A DNA stretch of 64,000 nt from Naegleria gruberi (GCA_000004985.1 GG738848.1); one strand, 5' to 3'; shown: positions 17,883 to 59,308, counted from the stretch's first letter. Notes: generated by a model from the sequence alone, not told the origin. A program made the numbers and translations.

Positions 17883-20800
17883 ATGGCAGTACGTTAGAGA
17901 TTCTTTAAGATTTTTTAATAGTAAAATTTATCTCTCATATTTTCTCATTGTTTTTGATTGTTATTAATTGTTATTGTTGTTACTGATTGTTTGTTATTAA
18001 AAAGACTTTGAATCAATTCACTATTGCTCATAGTAATAATAGTAGTACTAATAGTAGTACAAATACTGAAAATGATCCAACAAAGAATTGGCAAAGTACA
18101 ATTTTATTCTATGTGAACGGAGAACGTCATGAAATTACAAAACCAAATCCAAACACAACACTTGCAAATTATCTTCGTAAAAAGTTACATTTAACCGGTA
18201 CAAAGGGTATGTTGTTTTAATGTCGTTAAATTATATATTTAAATATATTTTAAATATATTTTAATAATAATAATAATAATACTAAATATTAAACAGTTGC
18301 TTGTGGTGAAGGTGGATGCGGAGCATGTACAGTTGTATGTATTATTCTTTAACAATATTTAATAATAACAATTTAATAATAATATTTAATATTTAATAAT
18401 ATTTAATAATATTTAATAATAGCTTGTATCACATTATGATCATTTAACAAATTTTGTAGTGAATAGAAGTGTTAATGCATGTTTATTTCCATTAATTCAA
18501 ATAGATGGATGTGCTATTGTAACAGTTGAAGGTATTGGTAATAATCATTCAGAAGATGTATTACATTTAATTCAACAACGTTTTAGAGAATTTGGTGCAT
18601 CACAATGTGGTTTTTGTACTCCTGGTTTTGTTATGGCTTTATATTCTTTATTGAGAAATAATCCTCATCCATCTCTTGAGGAAATTTCAAGAGCATTTGA
18701 TGGTAATTTATGTAGATGTACTGGTTATAGATCGTATGTATTATTATATTATTGTTGTTGTTTAATAATAATTATAATAATTATAATAATATTGATTGTT
18801 GTTTAAATGATGACTATGAAATGCATTACCTTAAATATGATACTATTTATGTATGATGATATGATACTATTTATATATGTGATGATATGATACTATTAAA
18901 TATGTTTGGTGATGGTGATTGAATATGATTAGCATTTTTGAGGCAGCTGCTACATTTGCACGTGTTCATGAAGATTCTGAATATCATCCAGCAAAAAGTG
19001 TTTGTAGTATGGGTGATAATTGTTGTAAAAAGACAGGTGAATCTTCTAATGATTGTGGTGGTGGTAATAGTAATAATAATACTAGTAATAATAATGGTTG
19101 TGGTAAGAATGATTGTTGTAAAAAATCACCAACACATGAAAATGATCAACATTCAAGAAGTAATGTAATTGGTAAACATTTATATAATCTAGTTGGACAA
19201 AAACATCCATTATTTCCACATGAATTGAGAAGATATAATCCAAATGAAAGATCACTTTGTGTTGAATCACCTGTACAATCAGGATCAGATAGACATGAAA
19301 CTAAAACTATTTATTATAGACCTTCTAATTTAAATGAATTTTTATATTTAAGAAAGAAATATGAACATGAAAAACATTTACGTATCATTTGTGGTAATAC
19401 TGAACTTGGTATTGAAACTAAATTTAAAAAATTTGATCATTATAGATATTATATTGAAGCTGTTAGAATTCCTGAATTACTTGTTAAAAAAGTTAATTAT
19501 ATTGATATTAATAATACTATTAATAATAACAATGATACTATTAATAACAATGATGATACTATTAATAACAATGATAATGATAATAATAATAGAATTGCTA
19601 AAAGTATTGAAATTGGAGCATCATTAACATTAACAAATTTATATAATTATTTAAAAAGTTTAATAGATGAATTACCAGAATATCAAATTCAAGGTATTAA
19701 AGCAGTATGTGAACAAATTGAAAGATTTGCATCAAATTCAGTTAGAAATGCAGCATCATTAGGTGGTAATATTGTAACTGCATCTCCTATTTCTGATTTA
19801 AATCCATTATGGTTAGCAATGGATTGTTCTTTAAATATTATGAATTCAAATGGTAATATTAGAATTGTACCTTTTAATCAATTCTTTTTAGGTTATAGAA
19901 AAGTTAATTTATTAGATGATGAAATTGTTATTTCAATTAATATTCCTTTATTTAATCATTTTAATACATTATCTTATAATAATATTAATAATATTGATAA
20001 TATTAATAATAATAATACTATTACTAATAATAACAATTTAATTGAAATAGTACATTCATATAAACAATCTAAAAGAAGAGAAGATGATATTGCTATAGTA
20101 ACATCAGGTATGAGAATGATTATAGATAAAAGTAATGGTATTATTAGAGAATGTAAAATATCATTTGGTGGAATGTCATTTAAAACATTATTAGCAGATG
20201 AAACAAGTAAATATTTAATTGGAAAGGAATTGAATGAACAAGTATTTTTACAATCATTAGAATTATTAAAACAAGATGTACCATTAAAAGAGAATGCACC
20301 TGGTGGTATGATTGAATATAGATGTTCATTAACATTATCATTTTTATATAAATTTTATATAAGTGTTTTAAAAGAATCAAAATTGAGAGAATTAACAATT
20401 GATGAAGAATCAGTATTAGAATCACAATTTATTAAACCCTATCCAAGAGGTGAACAAGTATATAGACCATTAAAAGAACAAGGTACAAGTGTAGGTAAAC
20501 CTATACCACATAATTATAGTCATTTACAAGTAACAGGTGAAGCAACCTATGTACAAGATATACCACCTCAATCAAGAGAAGCCTATGCATATCCTGTTTT
20601 ATCAACTAAACCATTTGCTATTATTAAAAAAGTAGATTATAATAGAGCATTAACATTTGAAGGTGTTATTACATGGGTTGATTATAAAGATGTTAAAGGT
20701 TCAAATAGATGTGGTGCTGTTATACATGATGAAGAAGAATTATTTTTAACAAGTGAAACTACTAGTTGTGGTCAATTAATTGGTTTTATTATTGCTGATT

Positions 20801-23495
20801 CTCATTTAAAAGCAATGACTGCTGCTAAATCTGTACATGTTGAATATGAAGAATATCAAAATCCTATTTTATCTATTCAAGATGCTTTACAATTTAATGC
20901 TCCTTCTTTAATTGATAGAAGAATATTTAGAGGTGATGCTATTAATAGATTAAATGAAATTAAACAATTAATTAATAATGATAATTCAAATAATAATAAT
21001 AATAATAATAACAATGATAATAATGATAACAATGATAATACTACTAGTGATAATTCTAATTCTAATAGTAATGAAGAATATGAAATAATTGAAGGTGATT
21101 TAAATATTGGAGGACAAGAACATTTTTATTTTGAAACACAATCATGTTTAATATTACCAGGTAGATATGGAATGTCAGGAGATGAAGGAGAATATGTTGT
21201 ATTTTCATCTACACAATCACCTACACATACTCAATCTATTGTTGCAAGTGCATTAGGTATACCAGATCATAAAGTTATTTCAAAATTAAAAAGATTAGGT
21301 GGTGGTTTTGGTGGTAAAGAAAGTAGAAGTTGTATTTTAGCAGGTATGTTTTTAATTTTTTAATTTTATTTTTAATTTTAATTTAATTTTAATTAAATTA
21401 TTAAATTATATTTAATTATAATAATATATTATTATTATATTTATAATTTAATATAGGAGCTGTTGCAGTTGCAGCACAAAAGACTAATAGACCAGTTAGA
21501 TGTATATTAGATAGAGATGTAGATATGCAATCATCTGGTCAAAGACATCCATTTTATTCTAAATATAAAATAGTAATTAATAAGAAGACATTAAAATTTG
21601 AAACAGTACTTGTTGATACATATGCAAATGGAGGATATTCATTAGATTATTCTAAAGGAGTATTAGAAAGAGCATTATATAGTTTTGATAATGTTTATTA
21701 TTTTCCACATATTGATTTGAAAGGTAAAGCTTTAAAAACTAATTTACCTACAAATACTGCTTTTAGAGGTTTTGGTGGTCCACAAGGTTTAATGATTTGT
21801 GAACATATTATTGAACATGTTTCACATTATTTATCTGTTAAATATCCAAATTTAATTAATCAATTCATTTTAAATCATTTAAATCAATATAATATTTTAA
21901 AGAATGTTATTTTACCTTCTATTCATTTGAATGATAATATTAATGATACAACTATTAATAATATTAATGATACTATTAATAATACAAATAATACAAATAA
22001 TATTAATAATAATACTATTAATATAAATACAAATAATAATAATAATATACAATTAAGTCATTTAATTAGACAAGTTAACATGTATGAAAAAGAGAATGCT
22101 ATAACACCATATAAAATGCCAATTGGTGATGTTCATAGAATTATATTAATGTGGGATAGAATTATTGAAATTACAAAATATCAAGAAAGATTACAACAAG
22201 TGAATGAATTTAATAGTAAAAATAAGTATCAAAAGAGAGGATTATCTTTAATTCCAACTAAATTTGCAATTTCATTTGGAGTTTCATTTTTAAATCAAGC
22301 AAGTGCATTAATTAATATATATAGTCATGATGGTAGTGTATATGTATCACATGCAGGTACAGAAATGGGACAAGGTGTTTCAATTAAAGTTGCACAATGT
22401 GTTGCTTCTTCATTAGGTATTCCAATTGAATTAATTCATATTGGTGAAACTTCAACTGATAAAGTACCAAATACATCTGCTACTGCTGCTTCTGTTGGTT
22501 CTGATTTAAATGGTTTTGCTGCAAAGAATGCATGTGAAAAAATTAATCAACAATTATCATCTTTAAAACAATCTTTATTTCCACATTTATTTAAGAAGAA
22601 TTATTCAAATGAATCTAATACTCAATCTAATGATAATACTCAATCTAATCAATCAAATCAATCAAATGATAATACTCAATCTAATCAATCAAATAATATT
22701 CAAACAAATCAAACAAATGGTGAAAATAATAATAATATAACAACACCTCAATTAAGTATTGAAGAATGGAAGAAATTAGTTAAAGAAGCCTATATGAAAT
22801 GTATACCATTAACAGCTACAGGATATTATAACACACCTAATTTATATATGGATTGGGATAAAAGTGAAGGTACACCATTTTCATATTTTACATATGGAGT
22901 AGCATGTAGTGAAGTACAAATTGATACATTAACTGGTGATTGGACATGTTTAAAAACAGATATTGTAATGGATGTAGGTGATAGTTTAAATCCTACTATT
23001 GATATTGGTCAAATTGAAGGAGCATTTATACAAGGAATGGGATATTATACAATGGAAGAATTAATATTTGGAGATAAAGAACATCCATGGGTACAACCAG
23101 GTCATTTATTTACTAAAGGACCAGGTAATTATAAAATACCATCTGGTAATGATATTCCAAATGAATTTAATGTACATTTATTAAGAGATGAACAAAATAG
23201 ACAATTTCCATCATCTGTATTTTCATCTAAGGGTGTTGGTGAACCTCCTTTATTCTTGGCTTCATCTGTTTTATTTGCTATTAGAAATGCTATTGCTGAT
23301 TTTAGATCTAGAAATTGTAATAATCCTTCTTATTTCATTTTAGATTCACCATGTACATGTGAAAGAATTAGAATGTTATGTGAAGATGATTTTACAAGAC
23401 ATTTTTATAATAAGAATATTAATGATATGGAAAATAATGAAAATAATAATGAACATGTTGAAAATGTTGCATTTAGAGCAAAGGGTAGTTTTTAA
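17883..23495 (+). CDS. xdh: Xanthine dehydrogenase/oxidase (2Fe-2S, FAD and molybdopterin domains). Proposed exons 17883..17888 (ATGGCA, tentative), 18005..18206, 18297..18338, 18460..18733, 18933..21343, 21457..23495.
   Basis: Conserved XDH blocks in order: 'ILFYVNGERHEI..TLANYLRKKLHLTGTK', 'VACGEGGCGACTVVL', 'NACLFPLIQIDGCAIVTVEGIG', 'GASQCGFCTPGFVMALYSLL', 'GNLCRCTGYR', FAD domain 'LRIICGNTELGIETKFK', Mo domain 'KRLGGGFGGKESRS' / 'NTAFRGFGGPQGLMI' / 'GTEMGQGV' / 'GVGEPPLFLASSV'. Splice junctions were derived from phase bookkeeping (donors GTATGT, GTATTA, GTATGT, GTATGT; acceptors all AG). There is no in-frame ATG upstream of the ferredoxin block in exon 2, hence the inferred 6-nt first exon. 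Confidence 0.85.
22610..22705 (+). repeat. In-frame tandem oligonucleotide repeats inside xanthine dehydrogenase, encoding 'NTQSNDNTQSNQSNQSNDNTQSNQSN'.
   Basis: 'aatactcaatctaatgataatactcaatctaatcaatcaaatcaatcaaatgataatactcaatctaatcaatcaaat'. A low-complexity insertion between conserved Mo-cofactor domain blocks. Confidence 0.8.
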
Positions 23496-42678: not shown

Positions 42679-44826
42679 TTATTGTTTCTTCTTATTGAGT
42701 CTTCTTCGCACTAGGAATCCTCTAACTTCTTTTTGGATAACAACTGCTGCATGATTTTTACAAGTATTAACAGCTATTGTGAGTGCATCTTGTGAGGCTA
42801 ATCTTTTAGAAGGAATTGGATCAAGCCCTCGGGAAAGAAGATCTATCAGAGGTTCAACAAAGTGGTGATTACACTTCTTTTTACCATGTTTGGCAATACG
42901 AGAAAAGTGATGGTTTTCTTTAAGGTTTTCTTCCCATAATTTTTCAAATTCTTCTTTCGATGTTATCTTGGCTTGAAGATTGATTTTCTTTTTGCTTAAA
43001 ACTTCGAATAATGAATAACAAATACTGTAAACATCAATAGTATTTGAAGCTGGTTGGCCTTCATTGTGTTCTGGAGGAAGATATCTCATAGTACCCCCAA
43101 TCACAGGATCATTAACCTTTACAGAGAACCCAAAATCAGCCAATCTAATTCCATCTTGTGATATTAAAATGTTTTGTGGTTTTACATCTGAATGAACGTA
43201 TCCAGTTGAATGAACAAGATGCATTGCATTCAGTAAATCAACTACTAATTTCAAATATTTGAGTGGTTTCATATATTTGACCTTCTTTCCTTTTGTACCA
43301 ACAAAACTAATTTGTTGAGTAAAAAGATCTCCATATTTACAATATTCCATTACTAGTACATTACAAAGAGATTTCTTGTTTGAATCATCTACTTCCTCAT
43401 AAGAAAAATAGTCCAACATTTGAATAATATTCTTATGTTTGAACAGTTTTAGACATTCCACTTCTCTATCAAAATCTCTTTGGGCTCCATCTTTGTATTT
43501 TTTAAGCACGCAAATCTCATTAGTTTCCTTTTTAGTGGCAAGAAAAACAATAGCTGAAGCGCCATCACTCAGTCTCGTTGTTACTTGATAGGAATCCTTC
43601 TTTTTCAAACCCTCCTCAAGATCCTTACTATTCTTCTTTGTAAACAGTGCTGTAAATGGTTTGATGAGAGCCTTCCAAGACCTTGATTTCTTCTCACTGG
43701 TGGATGTTGAACTACTTGACGAAGTTGTTGAGCTTGACGTACTGGTTTCTCTTTTACCAATAGAAAAAGCTCTTGTTGTTTTGGTTTTCTTTTGTGCTTG
43801 TCTTGGCATCAAATCTTCCTCGTCACTTTCTATTAATCCTAACCTTTCTCGGCATTTATCTAAAACTGAAATAATTTCTTCAATATTTGGTCTCTTTTCT
43901 GGTTCAACTGAAATACATTGCAGAGCAAGATTCAACAGTTTTTGAATAGTTACTTCAATAGTAATATCAATTGATGATAAATCAGTTAGAGCTCTTTGAG
44001 CCTTGTCTTTCACAAATTGTAATTCGTTTTTCCAATTTTGAGGGTCCAACATTTTGGCATCTATTTCTTCATTACACAAAATACTCAAAATCATAGTACC
44101 AAGCATATGAACATCGTTCGATGGTTCAAAATCATTATCACTTTCATATGCTTCCCTTGAGTAATAAGTGACATGTTCATCATTCAAAGTCTCCTTAATG
44201 GTTTCAATTCCAAAACTTGGAATTTGAAGTAAAACCTCTCCATCATACATTCCTTCAATACTCTTAGCAAGAATTAAAATGTTCTTTGGAAGAATGCTGT
44301 TGTGGCTAATGTTTGCATCGTGCAATTCTTGTACTGACATACACAAGTCAAAGAAAGTTCTTGTGACGAATTGGGCTTTGGATTTTTTAGTTTTAAGATA
44401 TTGGTTATTGTACATAATACTTTCCAAGCTGATGATTGGTCCATCCCAAGTTTGTAAAGTTGAAGTTTTGATGTTACATTTAGCATCTTTTGCTGAAGTA
44501 AAGTACAAATTTCTCGTCAATCCTCCGTTTGTAATTTTTTCGAAAACACCATCAATTTGGATGTTGTATTGCGATCTTAAACTTGCTTGAATATACCTTA
44601 AGAGTTTTTCCTCTAGTTTGGCACTCTTTTCAATCCTGGAATCCAATATAGATTGAGAAAAAACAAAAACATTTTTCGAAATCTTATCATCACTAAAAAC
44701 CGGAACATGAACATTGGTTGGATAGGAATCTTGATAGATAAGATCTAAACCAATTTTATCATCGCCCATCAACAATTTCTGAATCATTACTTCATAGGAT
44801 TGTATAGTCCCATTATTTGATTCCAT
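42679..44826 (-). CDS. Tandem pseudokinase / Ser-Thr protein kinase with C-terminal IQ motif (715 aa).
   Basis: C-terminal domain has 'ICVLKKY' (beta3 Lys), 'VHSDVKPQNILI' (catalytic loop, non-RD), 'LADFGFS', 'YLPPEH'. N-terminal domain is kinase-like but degenerate: 'ISHNSILPKNILILAKS' (HRD replaced by HNS, catalytic Asp lost), 'DVHMLGTMILSIL', 'EPEKRPNIEEII'. C-terminal 'AVVIQKEVRGFLVRRRL' is an IQ motif. A Ser/Thr-rich linker separates the two domains. Confidence 0.75.
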   Translation of the reverse strand: MESNNGTIQSYEVMIQKLLMGDDKIGLDLIYQDSYPTNVHVPVFSDDKISKNVFVFSQSILDSRIEKSAKLEEKLLRYIQASLRSQYNIQIDGVFEKITNGGLTRNLYFTSAKDAKCNIKTSTLQTWDGPIISLESIMYNNQYLKTKKSKAQFVTRTFFDLCMSVQELHDANISHNSILPKNILILAKSIEGMYDGEVLLQIPSFGIETIKETLNDEHVTYYSREAYESDNDFEPSNDVHMLGTMILSILCNEEIDAKMLDPQNWKNELQFVKDKAQRALTDLSSIDITIEVTIQKLLNLALQCISVEPEKRPNIEEIISVLDKCRERLGLIESDEEDLMPRQAQKKTKTTRAFSIGKRETSTSSSTTSSSSSTSTSEKKSRSWKALIKPFTALFTKKNSKDLEEGLKKKDSYQVTTRLSDGASAIVFLATKKETNEICVLKKYKDGAQRDFDREVECLKLFKHKNIIQMLDYFSYEEVDDSNKKSLCNVLVMEYCKYGDLFTQQISFVGTKGKKVKYMKPLKYLKLVVDLLNAMHLVHSTGYVHSDVKPQNILISQDGIRLADFGFSVKVNDPVIGGTMRYLPPEHNEGQPASNTIDVYSICYSLFEVLSKKKINLQAKITSKEEFEKLWEENLKENHHFSRIAKHGKKKCNHHFVEPLIDLLSRGLDPIPSKRLASQDALTIAVNTCKNHAAVVIQKEVRGFLVRRRLNKKKQ

Positions 44827-45295: not shown

Positions 45296-46720
45296 TTAAG
45301 CATGATTCTTTGTATGTAAACCCTCTTTTAAAATTGTCATTTTCACATCATCAAAAACATGTCTAACATTATCAGTATCAGTGGCACATGTAACATGAGT
45401 ATAAAGTCTATTGGGTTCACCTTCTCGTACTAATTTTTTAAATTTTCCAGTAATAAATTCAACTGATTCATCAAAATTATTTCCATCTCCTTTAAAATCG
45501 GGAAAATAGGTTGAAATTGGATTCTTTTGAATTTTCTTCTCAAATAAATCTCTCTTATTGAAAAATAACAGTATTGATGTATGTTTAAAGTATTGATTAT
45601 TGGCAATTTCTTCAAAAATAGCAAGTGATTCTTGCATTCTATTGGTTTTATCATCTTCATAACATGTTTGATCATATTCTGATAGAGCTACAACAAAAAG
45701 TAGACATGTTACACTCTCAAAACAATGTATCCATTTTTTACGTTCTATATTTGGTAATTATTATTATAATATAATGATGATGATGATGATGATGATGAAA
45801 TTATTATGATGATCAATTGTGATCAATTATGCACATGTGAATGTTTATAATTATTGATAATATTATGATCAAATATTAAATATTAAATATTATTGAATAA
45901 TATATGATTAAATATTCAATTTTTTTCAATAATATAATTAACATACCATTTCTTTGACCTCCAACATCTAATAATCTGAAATATAAATTATCAATTTCAA
46001 ATTTACATTCCACAATACCCGTCGTTTTAACTCTACATTTTACAATATCTTCATAGGTTGGTATATATTCACGAGCACTTATACGTTCAATATTTTCAAA
46101 GAAATATTCAGCAGAATCAAATATTTGAAATTCATTTCTTCTATCATAGGCCTATATATATAAAAAAATGTGTGTAAATAGTTAATAGTTTGTGTAATAT
46201 ATTGTAAAGTATTTAAAGTATTGTAAATAGTATTGTAAACTTACAGTCCTTATACCAGAATCATTCCATAATTTTTTAATTGCATCTCCAATATGAGGAT
46301 TAGTATCAAATTCTCTAGCAGCAATTGCTAAATTTGGATCAAGTGATTTAATTTTCTCAGCAATTTTCATATTTTCTTCATTATCAAATTTAATTTGAAA
46401 TCGTGAAGTTCCATCAATTAATCTTAAACAATTTAAAATGACATTTCCTCTGACAAGTGGCACATATGATTCAACTTCCTCACTTGTAAACCCATTCAAA
46501 TGAATAATTTTAATTTGTTCTAGATAATAAATTAAATTAATTTTAGATGTAATATTAATTACATACTAAATAATGTTGACTTTCCCGATTCTCCACTTCC
46601 GAGAAGAAGTAATTTAATTTCCTTGTTTTGTAAGAGAGCTTGGTTTCGAATATCTTCAGCAATTTTCTTGTTTTTAGCTCTTGCTAGACTTGGATCTTCA
46701 TTCTTTCCACCACAAACCAT
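45296..46720 (-). CDS. Heterotrimeric G-protein alpha subunit (360 aa). Exons 46567..46720, 46245..46519, 45947..46151, 45296..45744.
   Basis: All G-alpha boxes are intact: G1 'LLGSGESGKSTLFKQIKIIH', switch I 'RVKTTGI', G3 'DVGGQRNERKKWIHCFE', G4 'FFNKRDLFEKKI', G5 'THVTCATDTDNVRHVFDDV'. Splice sites are GTATGT/GTAAGT..AG with phases 1/0/1 and a total of 361 codons. The N-terminus 'MVCGG' lacks the usual MG(C) myristoylation start. Confidence 0.85.
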
Positions 46721-47258: not shown

Positions 47259-50200
47259 TTACTTCAATTCATCATCATTGGATGAAATATTATCAGCATT
47301 GGAAACAGCAACTATTGGAACATAATCAAGAATTGAAATTGCCTTCTTGTTCAATTCTGCAAACAAGTTTGCAACAGAAACGAGTGAAGAGTTTGATGAA
47401 AATAATTGTAACAAATCTTCACAAATATCCATTACAACTTTGTAGTCATTACAAAGAATTGAAAGGAATTTGTGGAAATTTTGTAAATTCTTTGGATTGA
47501 GAGGTTTTTCAAGTTTAACACGTTTAGCGACCTCTCTAAATAAGTTTGTACTTGTTGGAAGATATTGTCTGAGTGAGTTAAAATATTCCAAATCTCCTTT
47601 CTTTACACAGTTATTGTAAATTGGTTCAATCCAATCAGACATGGTGTTAATATCATAAGCATTGGCTATTATCAATGATTCCTCAAAGTCTGCATGATTT
47701 TGAATAAAGGTTCTTGCTTCCTTCAATCCAAGTTCAACAATTATTGGCAAATTTTGGAGCTTCTTCTTATTTGGGAGCTCATTGTAAAACTTCAGTTGAA
47801 GTTTGACGAGAGCAGCCAAGTTAGTTGACTTGACAGCAGTTTGACAACAATCTTCTTTGGCTAATGATGATGCTGCAGATTCAAAATTTTCACAAACAAT
47901 CTTCATAACATGTTCTAGTGGTACATGTTCATCTAAATGTGTAATTGATTGATTACTAGAGACACTTGTTGAAGAATCGTCCTTGTCTGTTAATCTCTTA
48001 TGAATTACCTTGATTCCTTTACATCCTCTATTATACAAATAGGTTCCATATTCTTTTAACATGTTAAATCTCAAGTAAACCATTGCTAACTTTTCATTTT
48101 GTTCAGGGAATTTAGTTTGCACGTACGATGATAAGGCCATTTTCAATTGGTTGTTATTATCATGGTCTGTGTTCTTGTTCTTTTTGAGAATAAGCTCAAA
48201 CTGTTCATTTTCTATTAAGATATCAAAAAGGAACGTAAGTTCTGAAAAGTCAGGAATGGAAACAAGCAACCTGACAATAAGTGAAAAGTCGTGATCATCT
48301 AAAATTTCTTGAATAATTGGTCCTTTGATTCTCTTTAAAATTGACTCTATCCCTTCAAAACTTGAAGACATATGATAACAATGATAAGCTCTAATAATAA
48401 TTTCAACTTTGCATTTCAAGTTCAAAATACCTCTGGATTTCTTCTTGTGTGGGCTATCGTCATTTGTTTCATCATCAGAGTCTATTAATTTGATTAATTG
48501 ACGAGCAATAGATGATGGATCTTTTGCAATATTGGCAAATTCTGCAAATTCATCCATGGTGCATTTGACTAGATCGAATTGTTTTTGTGACTCTTTGAGA
48601 GTTTTGATTGGCTTACTCTTAAGTTGTTGGTTAAATTGTTTAAAGAATGTTGAAGTTTGCACACTTGCTGTATAGGAGCTAGAAAAATCAAAGCTTGAAA
48701 ATGAGCTACCAGAACTTGTTGATAATCTATCATCAAAATCTTCGGTACTTGAGGTACTGTCATTTGCTCCACTGTTATTATTATTGGCAGATGAGGATTG
48801 GAAATAATCTTCAATTAGAATTTCACCTCCTCCCTCTTCTTGATTTTTGAATATGGAAACATCCTCGTTTCTATAATACTCAACATAGGTAGAATAGAGA
48901 TAATTAGCACAAACTTTAGAAGCTCTATCGCTATCAAGATTACGAAGTTGAATGAAGGAAGAACAAACTTTAAGCTTTTCCTTTCCAAACATCATTAGCA
49001 AGAGTTTTAAAACTTCAAAATCATCCTTTGTAATAACACTATCATAACTTAATTGGAGAATTCTTCCAATTTTGTGATTGAGGGCAATAACTTTGAGGAA
49101 GTGTTTGGAACCTTTCATCTTATAACCAAAAGATAAAAGAGACATCTTATCTAATATTTGTTGAATATCGTCAAATTCATCAATATTGAGGACCATATCT
49201 TTAAGAGCAGAATAAATATTTGATGGAAGCGTTTTGGCAGCAAAGCTATTATTTCTCTGATCAGAATCTTGATACATTGTCTTGATTTGTAATTCATAAC
49301 CTTTTGCCAATGTAAGAGCAACTTCAATAATTTGTAAAATATTACTATTATATGAATAGTAATTAGCAAGCTTCTTTGCTTCTTTGTACTGTTCTTTTAG
49401 TAATAAATTATCAATGACCTTATCTAATAATTCATCCATATTGTTGATATTGGTTGGTATATTTGGTTGGTTTGATCGTTTTGAGGAATTTTGAGTATTT
49501 TCAATAAATCTGGCCTCTAATGGAGCTAAAACTATTGAGGCGCCACTTGTAAAAAAGTTATCTGCAGAGTTGGAAAGTAAAACAATACTCTGTACAAGAT
49601 AGTCAATATCTTTTTGATTTCTACATGGAGTTGGATTTGTTTTTGTCATTTCAATACTACCTCTCTTTTTGGTTATATTATAGGTTCCTTCATACCAAGA
49701 CAGTGCAAGATTCAACAAATGTAAAACGCTGGTAGAAGAATATTCTGATTGGTAGAGTATTGCTTGTTCTAAGAAGAATTTAGCACCACTCTCTTGCGGA
49801 TATCTGTGCTTGATGAAAAGATCATTCACTTTTGAATAGGCAGTAATGATATCTGTGGTATTAGTAACATAGAGTGAACGAACTTTTTGAATCTTGTAAA
49901 GAGCTTGAGAGTATGTAACCTTATCATTTGAATAGGTAATCTTCTTTCTATACATGACAATAACTTGTCTTGCCTCTTTGAAACAGTTATTTTCTATCAG
50001 AGATTCAATAAAATGATTTGGATTTCCTGTAAAGACATTGAGGTGATCGATTTCTTGTACTTCTCCAGACTTGAAAACTCTTTCAAATAATGAATTTACA
50101 CTGTACATATTTTCAAACTCATTGGTAACATCAACAATTAACGAGAATTGTGTCTGATGAAGTAACTGGAGATAATTGGTACGTTTGTATTGCGTGTTCA

Positions 50201-53200
50201 AAGACCTGGATAGTTGTTGTGCTAGAGCTGTTGAAGTGGAGACAACCCATGTTAAATCGCCAAAGTTAAAGTTTGGAGCAACCCCACTATTCAAATCCTT
50301 TACAACTTTAACAAATGTCTTCATTTCATCTGTTGCCTTTCCAATATTTTCATGAACATATGATTCATAGAATTGTAAGAATGAAATAATTGGATTATTA
50401 ACATCAAACAATTCAAATGATTGTGTAATATAGTGAACACCGCTTTGTTTTTCATCTTTCAGGAAATTATTTGAACAAAAATCTTGAATATATCTATCAA
50501 TACTTTCTGTCAACTTTCTCATATTTTGTTTCTTAATAGATATGGTTTCATTCTTTTTCATTTCGGTATTTGTTAACTTTTGCTTTAAAGATTGCAAATA
50601 ACATTTCATACAAGTGAAAAGTTCAGACATTGTATAATCTTTAGGGAGATAACAAGTGGCAACTATTGCAAGTAAAGGTTCACTAAGAGCAAGTGATCTA
50701 TTTAACAAATACTCAACAACTTCATCATTTTTCAAGTTGAATTCTTCAGCTCTCATAATTTCTAGGAATGCCTTGAATATAATATCATTTTCTTGATTTA
50801 AATCCGTAAGAATATCGTTATTATTATTCTCTATTGATAACTTAGTTTGAATATGGTCACGTTTTGATTTCATATCTCTCAGAACAATAATTAAAAATTG
50901 TTTGATGACATCAGGCATGAATTCTTCTACAATACTCATAACTGTCTCAATAGGAGCATTAATATCTTGAGCATGATAAAGGAATGAAATCCATTGTCCT
51001 TTCTTGGCAGTAGATTTTAATTGATTTACAAATGGTGGTAGACCATGTAATTCAGAAAACACAGATAAGAGCTTCCAAGGAGAAACATAAATCTTGTGTC
51101 CACTATTTCTCATACCATCTAAAATTTGAACTTGTGATGGATCAGTGGAATTCTTAGAGTTATACTCCTTCTCTAAAAATTCTTTGACTGAAATGTCAAC
51201 AATTAGCATGCTTTCAGTTGCTTCTTCCAACATTTTAAGAATTTTGAATTGAGGATGGGATAAATAATGTTCGTAAACGGAACTTGTAGATTTTGATACG
51301 GAAATTTGTAAAAATTCTTCGACGAGCTTCTTAGAAGGACTATCAACATGTTGTGGTTGATCAACTTGAGCAACAAAAGATGGATGAAAATCAAAAATTC
51401 TTCTAGCTACTTTTGTTTCAACAAGGATGACCTTGGCATACTTATCAGAATACTCTTCAAAATTGCAAAGGTCTATGAACATTTTACATGAGGAAGTGAT
51501 AGCTTGATTAGAAAAATTATTCAATGCAATTTCTCTGACTCTATCACAAAGATTCAATTGGGATTCCTTGTCCATATAATTTGAAAGGGGAAGTTGTTCG
51601 TTCTTTCCTCCATACAGATAAGGTGAGTAAGCATCATCTATTAAATCTTTCAATTCATTATCCTTGGTAGAATTGACTTCACTGAGTAACTCCTTGTAAG
51701 CTTCCAAAGGTCTTTGATTCATCAAATAGTAGGAAATATCAAGAACCTCCTTGATACTTGATTCATATGTCGAAAAGTTGAATAAGTCATCTCTATTGTT
51801 AATCTTAAATTGAGTAGGGGTTAATAAATTAAACTCTCCTTGATTAATTTCGTTACCTTCGTCCATCATTAAAATTTCATCAATAGACATATCAATATGT
51901 GTATGTTTAAGCATATCAAATAGAGAAATATCTTTTTGGCATGAAACAATGTTACCTCTTGCAATTTCGTTATTGCAAAGGTTGATAGTTTCATTTTCAG
52001 ATTGACTCTCCTTTGATAGGGTTGGGTTTTCAGAATGCTTTGTACTTTTTTCATTAAAAAGTGCAGAATGGAAGGTTGGATATGGCTGAAGCGCTTTGGA
52101 TAAGTAAGAACTGTTCAAGTAATGCTCACTTGTAATTGGTTCTTCCAAAGATTCATGAAGAGTTTTTGGAGAATACATTTGTGTGGAGAGAGCCATGATT
52201 GGATTTTCATTAAGAATGCTATTCAAATTAATCTTTTGATTATCATTATTTCTAAGTTTAGATTGGGCGTTAATGAATGATAAATTAAACATATCCTTCT
52301 TATTGGAGAGTAAGAACATATTTAACCATGATGGTCTCTTATCTTCAGTGAAGGATTTATCTAATGCATCCCAAATATTAAACTTGTCAATATACCTAAA
52401 GCAAATACTAGGAATATTTTTCTCAATACAGAAAGAAATAAAGTCTTTGTGGAATTTGCTCATTTCTCCCACTGGATGTAAATAAGTTGTGTTGATTGGG
52501 TTGGAAACAATATCCTTATCAGAATCGAACATATTGGTAGGATCACATTCAATAGACAAAGTTTCTATTAAATTAGATGGAATATCATTTGAAAAAAGTT
52601 GATAGGTTGCACAAAATCTTTGCAACAAGGAAATAAAATCCTTTGTATCTTCTCTAATGAATATTCCTCTGAATGCAAGACTATTCAACAATAGCTCTTT
52701 CATCATTGGACTACAAAATTGTAATTGTTCTCTGACAATGTTGATAACTTCTTGACAACTTTCAACAACCTGTTGCATCTTGGAAGAGTAACCTTCAGGA
52801 ACATAGAGAATATCTCCATCTTCTGTTTGATAACATTTCACACTTTCATTCTTCTTTTTCAAGTTTCCGTAGTATTTAATTGCACTCTTTGACCATCTCA
52901 CCAGTCCAACAAAATCATGATGAGCAATACAAAAGGCAAGCTTTGATTTGTTGGACTCATTATCGTGATAATCTTTTTCAAGTAGAATTCTCTCTCTTGT
53001 ATGTTTATCCCATCTCAATAACCAACTCAATTTAGATACAAAGTAAGAGGACTTTGACTTTGATAGTGCTAAAATTTTCTTGTTAGTGCTAGATATTGAA
53101 GCACTTCTCATTCTTGATTGAATAGACACTTTACGTTTAAAAACTAGGCTATCTGAACTATCTGAAGATACTGGTGATTCAACAACAACACTACTTGTAA

Positions 53201-56200
53201 TGTGGTGGAGTGGCGTAAGTTGTGCATCATCAGAAATATCTCCAATAACAATGTTTTTTTCCACTTGATCAAAATCTTCATCTGTGAAAGGATTATACTG
53301 TCCGTATGGAAGCACCTTTTCAAGTACTTTTTGAATGGATGTATCAGGATAAAGTTCTTCCAAAAGTTGAAGAAATTCTATTACATCTTGTTCCTCTTCT
53401 GAAAGCTTCTTCATTCTCTTCAATTCCTTAATTAAATGGTTTCTAATATTCTTGTCGATCGTATTAAAAGCCAATTCTCTTAAATGTTCTGTAACATCTT
53501 CTCCCAAGTTTTCTAGCATTTTAATAGCAAGATTATATTCACCAGAAACTAAATGTTCATATATTACAATAAAGGAAAGTTGTTGAAAGCTTTCAAAATC
53601 TTCAATTTCGAAAAAGTTGTTAGTATTGTCTTCATCCTCACTATCACATTCAGCTGCAGACTTGTGCTTTACGGTTCTATTTTTCAAGAATGAGTAACCA
53701 AGCGAAACAAGACCCTTAGTCAAACAATCAACAATTATGGACTTATTTTCCATATTCTTCCACTTGTGATAAAGTTCTTCATTGCCTCTCATTAAAATTT
53801 TGTCAAACATTTCCATTTCATTCTTTTCGTCTGCATCAGAAATTTCATTCTCCTCGGCATCATAATTATACATATCTTCTTCATTGTTAATCGATACACC
53901 TGTCTTCATTTCGGAACCGAAGAAGGATAAATCATTAAAATTATCACCTCCAGAAAAAGACTTTGTTAAAATTAAGTTAAATCCTGTTGTATAAATTATC
54001 TAACTTACCAAATCCAGGTCTATTCTCTTCTCTGAACGAAGAGTTTCACTTCTCTTGCTTTGAGAATTGAATGAACTAAGTAAATCTGCTGCTATTGGTT
54101 CATTTACTTCTTCTTCCTCTTGATTATTATATATCAAATATGATCTCAATAGAGAAATGATACTAGATAAAAGCAAAACTTCTTCTGGTTTTGACAAAAC
54201 TTGCTTGGAACTCATGATATCCTCAATGATTGAAATAGTGTTAGAAGATGGATTATTAATAATGTCATTTGAAGCACTTGTAATTTCATCAATTTCAGAA
54301 ATGGTTTGACTTTCCATAAACTTGTCTAACTTTTTGGCATTCTTAATCTCCAACTTTTTAATCACAGAATCAGTACTTTCAATCTTAATAGGTACTCTCT
54401 TATCTTTGAATATAAATATAGAATCAAAAGTATTTGGCTCTTCTTCACCCAAATTATATTCATTCTTTGAACCCAGCTCTAAAATTCGTTTTTCAATCAA
54501 TGAGAGAATGTAAGATATGGCTGTAGTGATAGTATGAATTTTAAATTCACTATCTTTTGAAAATTTAGTGTCTTGAATAAACTTGGCAATTATATAGCAA
54601 ACATTTAACTCTTGCTCCGGATCAAGATGTTGCAAAGTATCTTGTACAACAGCAAGTTCTCTATTTCTCAAACCAAGCTCTATAGCATGAACTGCTAATG
54701 ATTTTCTGTCCCAGCCATTAAGATCACATAACCTCTCAGCTAATCTTTGTCTTTCGTACTTGATAAGATTATTCAAAAGAATGCTCTTGTTGGTGTTTAC
54801 ATTAATAAAGAAAACTCCATGTTTGTGGGCATCCTCTGTTATGTAAAAGCAATGTACATCTGAGCAGTAAATTTGGGAAATGAAATTACCCTTTTCCAAA
54901 CATATTGCTGTGGTTTTTCCTGAAAGCATGTCATAAACTTGAAGGAGTCTTATATCAGCCTCCAACAAGTCAAAAATGATGTAGCACTTGTTATTTGTTA
55001 TGATATAGTCATGAATTTTAGAATTCTTTTCAACTGCATGAATAACAGTAATGCCTTCATCAATGTGGCTGATATTTTCATCTTTCCTAGGAGAAAGCAT
55101 AAAGTTGTGACTTGATGTTCTCGAAATTAAAGAGTCTTTTCTCGAAAATGACTCTAAATTACTATCTAAACTACCAATTGATCCTCTTTTGATTAACAGT
55201 GAATCCCTCATTATGGTTTCCTTTCGTTGTTTGTTTGCAACTACAAATGGATAATTGCTCTTTGTATCTTTCTCAGTACCAAAATCATCACCTGAATCGA
55301 TGAGAACACTAGTAGATCTCTTTTGAGGTTCTGTATTATCAAACCAGTGAGATTGATAAAAATTCTCTGAGGTGTAACAGAAAGGTAAAAGTGATTCTAT
55401 TGGCTCAATAGTATCCGTTTTCTTTTCACTTTGATTGAGCAGTTCATTGAAGGAAAGTTCTTCGTCCTCCTCATCACCTTCAATATCTTCCTCTTCTTCT
55501 TCATCGCCTTCAGTATCATCTTCTTCATCAAAATCTTCTTCTGTTCGTTGAACATGCTCTTCTTCTTTAACATTTTCCGTTTTTAAATCCAAATCTATAA
55601 TATATACATCATTGTCACATGTTGCTGTTAAAAGTAATCCGTTATTCGATAATTTAAAGTTACATAAATTTACAATATCACAATTTACAAATCCAACTTT
55701 CTTCTTTTTAGAGATATCCCAAATATCAACTTTGTTTAGCATTTCAGAAGGGCTGGAAGAAAGTGAGCAAAAAAGAAACTGTTGATATGCCAATAATTCT
55801 CTATATGTATGATCCTTTGGAGCTTGTATTGTAAAATTACTACAAATTTGCAATAAAAAGTTCTGTAGAGAAACTTCACAAACATGATTGTTATCGAATA
55901 ATATTAAAAAGTGACGATCTTCAAGAATTGGAAGTATTGCTTTCATGGAGACCTCTTCTCCAAAATTAGCATTCTTGATGGAGTTTGTAATTTTTGAGAA
56001 TGATATTGTGAATTTTTTGACAATCCATGTTACTCTTTCATTCTTGAATTTAAATATTGTTTCCGAATCGTCTGTTAAGAAATTAATTAAAATTTTCTCA
56101 TTCCTTTCTGATGGACTAAACGTCTCATCTTGGTCACTTTTAGAAAAGAATATAATTTCCAAAGTATCATCCCTAGCAACAAGACAATAACACGAGAATT

Positions 56201-56651
56201 TAGACTGAATGCCTCCTGTTGTGTGTGACCTCATCCAATTAATCCTAATTTGAAATTAAAATACTATATTATCATTCAATACATACGATTTAATATTTCC
56301 ACAATTATTGATGGTAATAAATTCTCGCAAAAATTCAAATGTTGCATTATCGTACTGTGTACTTTCCTCCAAAAAAAAGAATTGTAACTTGTCATTAGTT
56401 CTATCCAATAAATAAATAATTTCATTATTCGGAGAATAATATGATTCAATATTGTTCGAGCATTGATGAATTGGCAAACCGGAAGATATTTTCACAGCCA
56501 AAACTGATGCCAAAGAAATTGAACTTGGTGGCATCATAAAAAAAGGTTGATGATATTCCTCCTTACTAATTTTAAAATCATCATCATCCTGATCAAAGTT
56601 TGTTGGAGTCATCGGAGATGATAACTCTGAGATGACGAGGTGATTTGGCAT
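47259..56651 (-). CDS. Very large protein (~3,100 aa) of unknown function. Proposed exons 56287..56651, 54009..56244, 47259..53960 joined by 42-nt and 48-nt introns. The N-terminal third has beta-rich repeats and an acidic E/D block; the C-terminal ~2,200 aa are largely alpha-helical.
   Basis: Three long same-strand ORFs of 131, 744 and 2216 aa are separated only by 22- and 90-nt spacers. The 744-aa ORF ends 'DLDL' immediately before GTAAGT, and the AG at 53961/53962 resumes the downstream frame ('SFSGGDNFNDLSFFGSEMKTG..'). The 131-aa ORF ends 'NIKS' at a GTATGT donor, and the TTAG acceptor resumes at 'INWMRSHTTGG'. No catalytic motif recognised. Whether it is a spatacsin/solenoid-type trafficking scaffold is untested. 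Confidence 0.55.
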
Positions 56652-57334: not shown

Positions 57335-59308
57335 TTATTCATTTCCCAAAATATGGGTTTTAAATTTCCATGAAAGATTTGGTTTAGTTTGATTGTGTGC
57401 AAACATTGGATAAATAGTGGATGTAATAATTTCCATTAATTGTTTGAATTGAATAGTATCAAGTGCATTCATGTAAAATGTGAATATTCTTTTTGGATTA
57501 TGATTATCTTTTGCTTTAAATTTAGATTCAATAAAAGAAAGAGTTTTCAAAACTTTCTGTGAAATTTGTACTTCCTTGTCGAGAAGATACCTTTGTGGAT
57601 TATTGTTAGGGTTAAGTTGACTCGAAGTATTGGTGAAAAAGTTATTTTGATCAGGAACTGGGTATTGATTAAAATCTGGAAACAAGTCAAAAAGTGATTT
57701 GTCATCGCTAATGGTTTCACTCAAAATATCAATCTTTGTGAAAATGAGGAAAATTGGTGAATATTTGAGTGGTCCATTACATTGTTCTTCAAATAAGTTA
57801 ATACTTTCTATCATCCTATTTGAAAAATCATCTTCATAACAAGTCTTTCTAAAGTCAATCAGTGAAGTGGTATATAAAACGCCTGTCAATCCAGCATAAA
57901 TATTATTATACTTCTTTCTTTCTGTTCTGGCACCACCAACATCATAAACTCTAAATGGCATACCTAGATAATCATAATCTAGACATGTAATACCTGTTGT
58001 TTTACAACGACAACCAATAATGTCTTCAACTGATGGCTCATATTCGCTCAGTTTCTTAAACATTCGTTTCACAGCGCTCGTATCACCATGATCCCTTAAA
58101 TAATAATCCATGCCATCTGTCATTGAGTCTGTTAACGCATAACGATTTAAAACCTTTCTAACATCTGTATCCTCCCACATGGAAACAACAAATTCCTTCT
58201 GTGGTAATTTAGAAATATCAAAAAGTGTATATCTAGATTGTAATGAAGTAACTCTAGAATCAAACTCTTTAAACTTTTCGTATAAAGTTTCATCTAACAT
58301 GAAACGATTTTCTCTCGTAACCTTAGTTGTACCATTCTTAATAGCATCAACTTCATTCAAATAAAGTGAAACTCCTAATGAAAAACTTTGTAGTAAATTG
58401 GTAATAATATACATTCTCATTCTCTCAATTTCAGACCTATTGAAACCTTCTTGAAAAACAAGTCTGAATTGTCTGAAAAGTGTAGTTTTACCAGAACCTA
58501 AAGTGCCTGAAAGCATTAGAGTATAAACAGAGGGTGATTCGTATTTGGATTTCTGAACTTTTTTAGTTTTGGCAACATGTTGTGCGTTGGACGACGTTGC
58601 CTTATTCATTTCCTTTCTATGGGATGGAGCATTGGAACTAAAATGGCCATTGGTTGTAACATTCATATTCTTGGATATATGATTCGAGAGATGATAAAGT
58701 TGATTGTTGGTATTGGCAGGAGATACGTCATGGATATCTATTGTTGTTGTTGTTGAACTAGAGGATTGTTGGTGATGATTCACTGCTGTTGACAATGTTG
58801 AAGGAGTTGTGGTGGGGGTGGTGGTGGATAAATTACTCATCATCATTGGAGTGGTTGTTGTGGTTGACAAATTACTTGTTACTGATGGAGATGGACTTGT
58901 GAGAGATGATGATGCAGTTGTTGTCTCATTGCTGTTAACAACTTCATCTCCACTCATGTACAAGGGTATTGGTTTATCGAATGGAACTGTAGAAAGTGGA
59001 ATGATTTGATTTTGTCCAATGGTTGACTTTAACTTTTTGTACAATTGTTGTGTAGCTGTTGTTTCAGAATCAGATTCATGTCCATTGTTTTCCTGTGTGG
59101 TTACAGTAGCTGTGGCTTGATTGGCCATTGGAATCATCATGTTTGGTTCTAATTTGTGTTGCTGCTGTTGACCAGGTGGAACATCTCCAAAGGCTTTCTT
59201 CTTTTTTAAATATCTATTCATCATTTCCTTCTTCATTCGTTCATGTTCATTACTTTCCCTGATAACACTTGTTATGGATGGAAAGAAGAATGAAAGTAGA
59301 CTTTCCAT
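57335..59308 (-). CDS. Divergent G-alpha-like protein (657 aa) with ~240-aa Ser/Thr-rich N-terminal extension. Predicted GTPase-impaired: catalytic Gln replaced by Ala, NKxD replaced by TKID, TCATDT replaced by NALDT.
   Basis: Colinear with G-alpha from residue ~245: P-loop 'LSGTLGSGKTTLFRQFRLVFQEGF' (GAGESGKST), helical-domain region, switch I 'CRCKTTGI' (Arg finger and Mg-Thr retained), switch II 'YDVGGARTERKKY' (canonical DVGGQRSERKKW), G4 'LIFTKIDILSE', G5 'FTFYMNALDTIQF'. Single uninterrupted ORF; A-rich start aacaaATGGAA. Confidence 0.7.
   Translation of the reverse strand: MESLLSFFFPSITSVIRESNEHERMKKEMMNRYLKKKKAFGDVPPGQQQQHKLEPNMMIPMANQATATVTTQENNGHESDSETTATQQLYKKLKSTIGQNQIIPLSTVPFDKPIPLYMSGDEVVNSNETTTASSSLTSPSPSVTSNLSTTTTTPMMMSNLSTTTPTTTPSTLSTAVNHHQQSSSSTTTTIDIHDVSPANTNNQLYHLSNHISKNMNVTTNGHFSSNAPSHRKEMNKATSSNAQHVAKTKKVQKSKYESPSVYTLMLSGTLGSGKTTLFRQFRLVFQEGFNRSEIERMRMYIITNLLQSFSLGVSLYLNEVDAIKNGTTKVTRENRFMLDETLYEKFKEFDSRVTSLQSRYTLFDISKLPQKEFVVSMWEDTDVRKVLNRYALTDSMTDGMDYYLRDHGDTSAVKRMFKKLSEYEPSVEDIIGCRCKTTGITCLDYDYLGMPFRVYDVGGARTERKKYNNIYAGLTGVLYTTSLIDFRKTCYEDDFSNRMIESINLFEEQCNGPLKYSPIFLIFTKIDILSETISDDKSLFDLFPDFNQYPVPDQNNFFTNTSSQLNPNNNPQRYLLDKEVQISQKVLKTLSFIESKFKAKDNHNPKRIFTFYMNALDTIQFKQLMEIITSTIYPMFAHNQTKPNLSWKFKTHILGNE

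Follow-up and report, generated by a model that had tools for sequence, protein, structure and literature searches.

Signaling by G-alpha subunits is defined by a timed cycle of guanosine triphosphate (GTP) hydrolysis, and most known mutations of Gly42 and Gln204, which break this timer, come from oncogenes or were made in the laboratory. A gene of Naegleria gruberi, a heterolobosean amoeba (Heterolobosea), raises the question of what becomes of a G-alpha in which both positions have changed naturally. The gene occupies 57335..59308 on the minus strand of a 64,000-nucleotide stretch of genomic DNA (GCA_000004985.1 GG738848.1; the whole stretch is called the window hereafter). A first-pass annotation of the window had described its product as a G-alpha-like protein that is either locked in its signaling state or independent of nucleotide. 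We propose, with modest confidence, that the gene encodes a selectively maintained atypical G-alpha that would bind guanine nucleotide and Mg2+ and would hydrolyze GTP very poorly. Active-site positions are numbered according to human GNAI1 (Gαi1), the copy used being identical to the PDB sequence over residues 1-354.

Fold and active site of the atypical G-alpha

The translation of the gene is identical over its full length (100%) to the N. gruberi protein XP_002682131.1 / EFC49387.1 / UniProt D2V1X4, so the dictyostelid origin that had initially been supposed was mistaken. This protein carries the annotation "guanine nucleotide binding protein alpha subunit", and its gene model consists of the same single exon on a 712-kb contig. 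Residues 241-632 match Pfam PF00503 from position 3 to position 333 of its 333 (E=3.4e-69; 234 bits, with a gathering cutoff of 48.8), and a profile hidden Markov model (HMM) built from canonical G-alphas only also matches the protein (E=7.9e-70). Its closest sequence match in the PDB by HMMER is Naegleria fowleri Gα7 (6NE6; E=5.7e-31). An AlphaFold2 model of residues 241-657, for which a 51-sequence alignment was used, contains both a Ras-like and a helical domain at a mean predicted local distance difference test score (pLDDT) of 85.7 and a predicted template modeling score (pTM) of 0.86. The PDB matches listed by Foldseek for this model are G-alpha chains only, the best being 1azt (Gsα·GTPγS; E=1.3e-21), with target-normalized template modeling scores (TM-scores) of 0.75-0.86 against PDB G-alphas. 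By homology and by fold, the protein is a member of the G-alpha superfamily; the full-length Pfam match and the helices modeled at residues 291-432 bear out the helical domain that the first-pass annotation had recognized.

In order to place the active-site residues, four independent alignments were made, namely HMMER against PDB chains, MAFFT with GNAI1, a 51-sequence MAFFT alignment and the canonical-only G-alpha profile HMM. All four put Ala460 opposite the catalytic Gln204 of Gαi1, as had been claimed from the sequence at the outset; in the HMMER alignments to PDB G-alphas, DVGGARTERKK of the atypical protein faces DVGGQRTERKK. The P-loop differs from that of Gαi1 by Ala41→Thr, Gly42→Leu (Leu270), Glu43→Gly and Ser47→Thr, so that the canonical second P-loop Gly (Gly42) is absent, and it keeps Gly40, Ser44, Gly45, Lys46 and Thr48, leaving the GxxxxGK[ST] pattern intact. 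The earlier statement that the conserved P-loop Glu had become Leu was off by one in register, because Leu replaces Gly42 and Gly replaces Glu43. This correction is mechanistically weightier than the change it displaces, since Gly42 is the equivalent of Ras Gly12. Gln204 corresponds in turn to Ras Gln61, and mutation of either residue gives GTPase-deficient Ras or G-alpha; Glu43 is the acidic P-loop residue that pairs with the Arg finger over the nucleotide. Sequencing error is an unlikely source of the two key residues, because their codons, GCC for Ala460 (57929-57931) and TTA for Leu270 (58499-58501), are each at least two substitutions away from any Gln or Gly codon, respectively.

The remainder of the site is largely retained. 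In switch I, Arg434 corresponds to the Arg finger (Arg178) and Thr437 to the Mg2+ ligand Thr181, both of which are invariant in the three orthologs described below, and the preservation of the KTTGI motif, the Arg finger and the RTERKK flank noted initially was upheld by this mapping. In addition to Gln204→Ala, switch II has Trp211→Tyr, and it keeps DVGG, including Asp200 and Gly203, together with Arg205, Glu207, Arg208 and Lys210. The G5 box has Thr324→Met, Cys325→Asn and Thr327→Leu, with the guanine-contacting Ala326, Asp328 and Thr329 kept. The ligands of phosphate, Mg2+ and guanine that are retained thus comprise Lys46, Ser/Thr47, Thr181, Asp200, Gly203, Lys270, Asp272 and Ala326, and Arg178 is present as well. 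The TKID and NALDT substitutions in G4 and G5 had been listed beside the loss of the Gln, and the residues themselves were read correctly. They are weak evidence of degeneracy, however, because TKxD was also seen in four otherwise canonical, Gln-containing G-alphas among the database matches, and N. fowleri Gα7, a G-alpha with measured nucleotide cycling (PMC9283941), has xxALD in its G5 box. Three features of canonical G-alphas are missing, namely Gly42, the catalytic Gln and a lipidated αN start: the protein begins MESLLSFFFP, with no Gly2/Cys lipidation signal, as compared to an MG start in 91 of 154 retrieved proteins.

Orthologs, selection and related G-alphas

HMMER, run exhaustively against 1.84 billion cluster representatives, returned 5216 G-alpha-like proteins at E≤0.001, among which the close matches were three only: the query itself, N. 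fowleri FDP41_009257 (570 amino acids) and Willaertia magna ABK040_005128 (599 amino acids; E=3.9e-92). The next match had E=3e-40. Word-index searches gave only the N. gruberi and N. fowleri proteins and two weak fragments, and the Willaertia ortholog was recovered only by the exhaustive search. In a neighbor-joining tree the three proteins form a monophyletic, long-branched group. FDP41_009257 is a positional ortholog: its gene and the one in the window are followed by the same three open reading frames (ORFs), which belong to a spatacsin-like gene. An N. lovaniensis ortholog was not among the search matches, having probably been collapsed into the 50%-identity cluster of N. fowleri. A metagenome scan revealed no further members of the clade and one distant environmental G-alpha exon only.

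Leu42, Gly43, Ala204 and Thr269 are common to all three orthologs. The codons differ synonymously between the species (GCC/GCT/GCT for the Ala and TTA/TTG/TTA for the Leu), which argues that Leu42 and Ala204 have been held despite drift. The replacement of Gln by Ala is thus a conserved state rather than the lineage-specific decay that the first-pass annotation had raised as the other option. Of the 150 best representatives, 138 carry the catalytic Gln, and Ala takes its place in the three orthologs only. When all alignment columns with at least 80% conservation across 48 other G-alphas were scanned without preselection, the active-site positions changed in all three orthologs were Gly42, Gln204 and Asn269, and the surface positions changed were Glu186, Asp231, Lys277 and Thr324. 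The same scan found Gly40, Gly45, Lys46, Thr48, Arg178, Thr181, DVGG, Arg205, Glu207, Arg208, Lys210, Lys270, Asp272 and Ala326 unchanged. On an author-compiled list of contacts in Gαi1, positions that touch the nucleotide are invariant among the three orthologs in 20 of 29 cases, as compared to 84 of 281 positions in the rest of the domain (Fisher p=4.6e-5).

The ORFs are intact in all three species, with 657, 570 and 599 codons for amino acids and no stops. Between species, the nonsynonymous divergence (dN) of the G domain is 0.39-0.60 and the synonymous divergence (dS) is saturated or undefined, so the usable statement is the qualitative one that dN lies far below dS. A closer comparison comes from the N. 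gruberi-like metagenome contig ENA ERZ929261, which carries the same gene at 98.4% nucleotide identity, followed by the same Mss4 gene. Its coding sequence differs from that in the window by four synonymous and two nonsynonymous changes and one codon insertion. The resulting protein differences (P165S, S170P and an added T) all map to the disordered linker; within the G domain there are two synonymous and no nonsynonymous differences. As judged from these sequences, the residue pattern is under purifying selection in N. gruberi, N. fowleri and W. magna.

Thirteen G-alphas of N. fowleri have been reported as transcribed, and the switch II Trp was stated to be universal among them (PMC9283941). 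Given the Tyr at this position, FDP41_009257 may lie outside that published set of 13; it would add a pathogen-conserved member to the Naegleria G-protein repertoire, which has been proposed as drug-target space.

Other unusual G-alphas came to light in these amoebae. W. magna ABK040_002026 (392 amino acids) has GTLQSGKST, DVGGMRNERRKW (DVGGMR) and TKVD, corresponding to Leu42, Met204 and Thr269, and groups weakly as sister of the Gln→Ala clade in the neighbor-joining tree; N. fowleri Gα1, with its Thr-Ala-Gln loop, has a similar P-loop, and ABK040_002026 may represent an intermediate lineage. N. lovaniensis C9374_005365 (463 amino acids) has GCCGSGKST, QKTTGV, DVGGNR, TNVD and an ALD G5 box behind a Ser/Pro-rich N-terminus. 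This protein looks truly degenerate, because the Arg finger (QKTTGV) and the Lys of NKxD (TNVD) are lost as well, and it is a candidate for a true pseudo-G-alpha in Naegleria. Both proteins share 28-31% identity with the Gln→Ala clade or its members. On present sequences, vahlkampfiid amoebae appear to possess G-alphas whose catalytic machinery has eroded to graded degrees. The environmental exon, at 262-966 of the JGI metagenome contig Ga0172367_10275107, stems from a very AT-rich eukaryote and reads NVGGARNERKKW; it has Asp200→Asn and Gln204→Ala with NKVD intact, shares ~40% identity with the query, and seems to have lost the catalytic Gln naturally and independently.

Predicted nucleotide state and its alternatives

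We lean toward a protein that still binds nucleotide and is locked or slow, because the ligands other than Asn269 are kept and conservation is higher in the pocket than elsewhere in the domain. Hydrolysis, whether intrinsic or RGS-stimulated, would be minimal, since the catalytic Gln that orients the attacking water is absent and a bulky Leu stands at position 42, where the transition state fits only Gly. Loss of the lid formed by Glu43 and Arg178 may in addition make nucleotide exchange faster. At cellular ratios of GTP to guanosine diphosphate (GDP), the protein would then be mostly GTP-bound and serve as a signaling subunit that is constitutively "on" or cycles very slowly. Its output would depend on its abundance, localization or modification, and not on a GTPase cycle timed by receptor and RGS. 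The N-terminal helix, the ~200-residue disordered Ser/Thr-rich linker and a PIPxF/Y motif are candidates for such control. The small Ala204 may be a co-adaptation that makes room for Leu42, and the pair offers a natural test of such structural co-adaptation.

Studied proteins provide precedents. N. fowleri Gα1, with its natural and milder Thr-Ala-Gln P-loop, hydrolyzes GTP slowly, and this loop, when transplanted into N. fowleri Gα2, made activation faster and abolished RGS acceleration (PMC9283941). The side chain of G42V sterically blocks the positioning of Gln204 (bioRxiv 10.1101/795088). The impaired hydrolysis suggested in the first-pass annotation is supported by the sequence and strengthened by the loss of Gly42 and by the presence of all the changes in N. 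fowleri and W. magna; of the two outcomes offered there, nucleotide independence is the less favored.

Several considerations weigh against a GTP-bound, poorly hydrolyzing protein. Gαi1 G42R is unable to reach the active conformation (PMC9283941). Leu42 is bulkier than Val, and the canonical active state or GTP binding itself may be impaired; a loss of affinity for nucleotide could follow from Asn269→Thr and Glu43→Gly. A selected Arg finger could mean residual hydrolysis, or hydrolysis assisted by a GTPase-activating protein (GAP), rather than none. The contact list behind the enrichment test is also a weak point, as it is our own compilation of what we take to be the contacts in the Gαi1·GTPγS structure.

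That the protein is instead a nucleotide-independent pseudo-G-alpha or scaffold, in which Leu42 fills the γ-phosphate site, affinity without Glu43 and Asn269 is too weak to keep the pocket occupied in vivo and function rests on nucleotide-independent contacts between proteins, as has been proposed for Arabidopsis XLG2, we consider unlikely. Such a protein would account for the joint alteration of the pocket positions Gly42, Glu43 and Asn269, for the altered surface near the Gβγ/effector face in the three orthologs (Glu186→Cys/Tyr, Asp231→Arg/Thr and Lys277→Thr/Cys), and for the prolines just upstream of β1, into which no helix directly leads. It also has a precedent, as XLG2 binds GTPγS 100-1000x more weakly than canonical G-alphas and still binds RGS1 and Gβγ (bioRxiv 10.1101/795088). 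However, XLG2 has lost Lys46, DVGG, the Arg finger and Ala326, all of which are retained and invariant here, and the pocket is the best-conserved part of the protein, which is unexpected if it is unused; for these reasons an XLG2-like nucleotide-free state is disfavored. In a nucleotide-free pseudoGTPase, binding ligands such as the P-loop Lys, the NKxD Asp or both would be expected to be gone; in all three species these ligands are invariant. TKxD, moreover, occurs in otherwise canonical G-alphas, and Ras with a substitution at the P-loop Gly is constitutively active, not nucleotide-free (PMC9283941).

The retained Arg finger and RGS-contact residues, together with the more than 100 RGS-domain proteins encoded by Naegleria, suggest a GTPase that still cycles, either slowly through Arg178 alone or with a water-orienting residue supplied in trans by a dedicated GAP, although we regard this as improbable. 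Rap provides the analogy, as it lacks Gln61 and the Asn thumb of RapGAP is used instead. The Arg finger, Thr181, Thr182, Gly183, Glu207 and Lys210, which make up the catalytic and RGS-contact surface, are conserved in the clade, N. fowleri has 28 seven-transmembrane RGS proteins and 79 other RGS-domain proteins (PMC9283941), and RGS4 places an Asn beside the catalytic Gln (bioRxiv 10.1101/795088). On the other hand, a bulky Leu at Gly42 should hinder any transition-state geometry, and no candidate partner adjoins the gene, its neighbors being Mss4-like and spatacsin-like genes. To our knowledge, no RGS domain replaces the Gln of a G-alpha. The milder Thr-Ala-Gln P-loop, furthermore, was already sufficient to abolish RGS acceleration in N. 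fowleri Gα2 (PMC9283941).

A decaying pseudogene or annotation artifact, to which the loss of a hallmark catalytic residue and the long low-complexity region might point, is highly improbable and was rejected because of the three intact ORFs, the same substitutions fixed with synonymous codon variation, dN well below a saturated dS, synteny with N. fowleri, a G-domain protein identical in ERZ929261 despite synonymous differences, and a confident fold prediction.

Wider than the proposal of a GTP-bound, poorly hydrolyzing protein is the proposition that the vahlkampfiid clade keeps a GTP-binding G-alpha that has evolved away from hydrolysis, as a natural counterpart of G12V+Q61L, and is governed either wholly outside the GTPase cycle or by a dedicated trans-acting GAP that supplies the missing catalytic residue. 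We hold this to be a long shot. Candidate controls outside the cycle would be abundance, a phospho-regulated disordered linker and an N-terminal helix for targeting.

Within the literature library that was searched, neither accessions nor concepts led to a paper on the atypical protein or on a natural double loss of Gly42 and Gln204 in a G-alpha. The main paper on Naegleria G proteins (Bosch, Jeck and Siderovski 2022, PMC9283941) characterizes Gα1-3 and Gα5-7 and discusses no Gln-less member. The gene was already annotated; its atypical catalytic state and the conservation of that state appear to be undescribed. If the wider proposition is true, this would be the first described natural G-alpha that is GTPase-dead yet binds nucleotide, representing a new regulatory logic for the family. 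A G-alpha lineage with both positions replaced and held by selection across genera, and with its pocket preserved, would show that a G protein of the heterotrimeric type can be turned by evolution into a signal that does not cycle, as has happened with Rnd and RhoH among small GTPases. The immediate impact is moderate, because the gene had been annotated and the claim is read from sequence.

Layout of the locus and comparison with known G proteins

The features of the gene and its surroundings are collected in Table 1. The Ser/Thr-rich N-terminal extension described in the first-pass annotation is real, in that ~260 residues precede β1, Ser and Thr make up 29% of them and there is no MG start; it is not uniformly of low complexity, as residues 1-39 are predicted to form a helix. 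This prediction rests on two aligned sequences, and residues 1-39 are conserved in the N. fowleri ortholog. The segment may be a displaced αN helix. No helix leading into β1 is predicted at residues 245-261 in the full-length AlphaFold model, and prolines stand directly upstream of β1 in all three species. The linker, rich in Ser, Thr, Asn and Gln, diverges faster than the G domain (between-species dN of 0.85-1.23 vs 0.39-0.60), the N-terminal region as a whole evolving ~2x faster, and residues 1-260 contain no Cys. Within this otherwise unalignable linker, PIP[LI][YF] is the sole island that is invariant in the three orthologs, and it is a candidate short linear interaction motif. The insertion between αG and α4 is of species-variable length and partly of low confidence, with pLDDT dipping to 49-59, and the tail beyond α5 is not conserved among the orthologs. 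The plus strand within the gene holds ORFs of 61-66 amino acids only, which were taken as chance, and the DNA repeats within the gene are two trivial trinucleotide runs only, both in the part that codes for the linker.

Table 1. Coordinates in the window of the atypical G-alpha gene, its parts and the adjoining genes
Feature	Coordinates	Strand	Residues	Evidence
Complete single-exon coding sequence of the atypical G-alpha, 657 amino acids plus stop	57335..59308	-		ORF call; 100% identity and coverage to NCBI protein
G-alpha domain, Ras-like plus helical	57413..58588	-	241-632	Pfam PF00503, AlphaFold, Foldseek
All-helical domain between P-loop and switch I	58013..58438	-	~291-432	DSSP helices 291-432 in AlphaFold models; full Pfam coverage
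N-terminal helix MESLLSFFFPSITSVIRESNEHERMKKEMMNRYLKKKKA, hydrophobic then basic	59192..59308	-	1-39	Full-length AlphaFold: predicted helices 2-8 and 10-39, pLDDT 79-93
Disordered linker rich in Ser, Thr, Asn, Gln	58577..59173	-	46-244	pLDDT <50; composition
PIPLY motif, PIP[LI][YF]	58958..58972	-	113-117	Three-species alignment; P113, I114, P115 invariant
P-loop GTLGSGKTT (canonical GAGESGKST)	58481..58507	-	268-276	Four alignments, codon check
Switch I RCKTTGIT (canonical RVKTTGI)	57986..58009	-	434-441	Alignments
G3/switch II DVGGARTERKKY (canonical DVGGQRSERKKW)	57908..57943	-	456-467	Alignments
G4 TKID (canonical NKKD)	57728..57739	-	524-527	Asn269→Thr; Lys270, Asp272 kept
Clade-specific insertion of ~45 amino acids between αG and α4	57539..57673	-	546-590	Alignments
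G5 MNALDT (canonical TCATDT)	57455..57472	-	613-618	Alignments
Mss4-family gene (Rab guanine nucleotide exchange factor/chaperone), 119 amino acids	56830-57189	-		Pfam Mss4 E=7.9e-21; begins 145 bp past the end of the G-alpha gene's stop codon, on its downstream side
ORFs of 2216, 744 and 131 amino acids, probably one multi-exon spatacsin-like gene	47259-56651	-
Second, fully canonical G-alpha gene, several exons	45296-46720	-		GSGESGKST, DVGGQRN, FNKRD, TCATDT
715-amino-acid ORF adjoining the canonical G-alpha	42679-44826	-		Two kinase-like halves, C-terminal IQ-like basic tail, by eye

The adjacency of the atypical G-alpha and Mss4 genes is repeated in ERZ929261 and is probably incidental, because Mss4 is absent at this position in N. 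fowleri and Willaertia. The N. fowleri counterpart of the spatacsin-like gene carries the Pfam domain Spatacsin_C, and the order downstream of the G-alpha is kept in both Naegleria species. The second G-alpha gene, ~11 kb downstream of the atypical gene on the same strand, serves as an internal contrast to it; at the Willaertia locus, a second G-alpha gene likewise occurs ~8 kb from the ortholog, at 20048-21376 on the minus strand.

Canonical G-alphas, such as N. fowleri Gα7 (6NE6) and human Gαi1, share with the atypical protein the two-domain fold, GxxxxGK[ST], RxKTTGI, DVGG, ERKK, (N/T)KxD and the G5 Ala. The atypical protein differs from them in Gly42→Leu, Glu43→Gly, Gln204→Ala and Asn269→Thr, in its long neighbor-joining branch, in the missing Gly2/Cys start and the missing αN contiguous with β1, in its N-terminus of ~260 residues and in the insertion of ~45 residues before α4. 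Like N. fowleri Gα1 (PMC9283941), it has a natural P-loop that departs from Ala-Gly-Glu at the same three positions, here to Thr-Leu-Gly. Unlike Gα1, which has Ala42 and in which slow hydrolysis remains, it is also without the catalytic Gln and is the more extreme of the two. The same two positions are altered in Gαi1 G42V/Q204L, Gαs Q227L, Gαq Q209L and Ras G12V/Q61L, and Q→L mutants of G-alphas are GTPase-deficient. Such engineered or oncogenic mutants keep GTP bound, hydrolyze it very slowly and are constitutively active (PMC9283941; bioRxiv 10.1101/795088). In contrast to these mutants, both changes here are in the germline, are combined in one protein and are conserved across genera, and they are Leu plus Ala rather than Val plus Leu.

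A functional analogy is provided by Rnd1-3 and RhoH, which carry hydrolysis-preventing substitutions, are constitutively GTP-bound, and are controlled by expression and phosphorylation rather than by guanine nucleotide exchange factors and GAPs (PMC4974793; PMC3690454). As would be expected of this functional class, the atypical protein is substituted at the equivalents of Ras Gly12 and Gln61 and has intact binding motifs, its GTP-bound state being a prediction from sequence. Rnd and RhoH are small Rho GTPases without a helical domain, however, and homology is limited to the shared GTPase core.

Plant XLG1-3 resemble the atypical protein in that a long N-terminal region precedes an atypical G-alpha domain, in which the G boxes are altered and the changes extend to the catalytic Gln and Gly42. 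That region is Cys-rich and bears a nuclear localization signal in the XLGs. XLG2, which is essentially nucleotide-free, is without Lys46, DVGG, the Arg finger and Ala326 (bioRxiv 10.1101/795088). The atypical protein, by contrast, has no Cys in its N-terminal region and keeps Lys46, DVGG, Arg178 and Ala326. It is not an XLG, given its different lineage, the lack of a Cys-rich region and the binding residues that it keeps; plants and Heterolobosea are unrelated, and the likeness is convergent at most. On our best reading, the logic of the atypical protein would be closer to that of Rnd/RhoH, and its chemistry closer to that of mutants combining G42V and Q204L, than either would be to the nucleotide-free XLG2.

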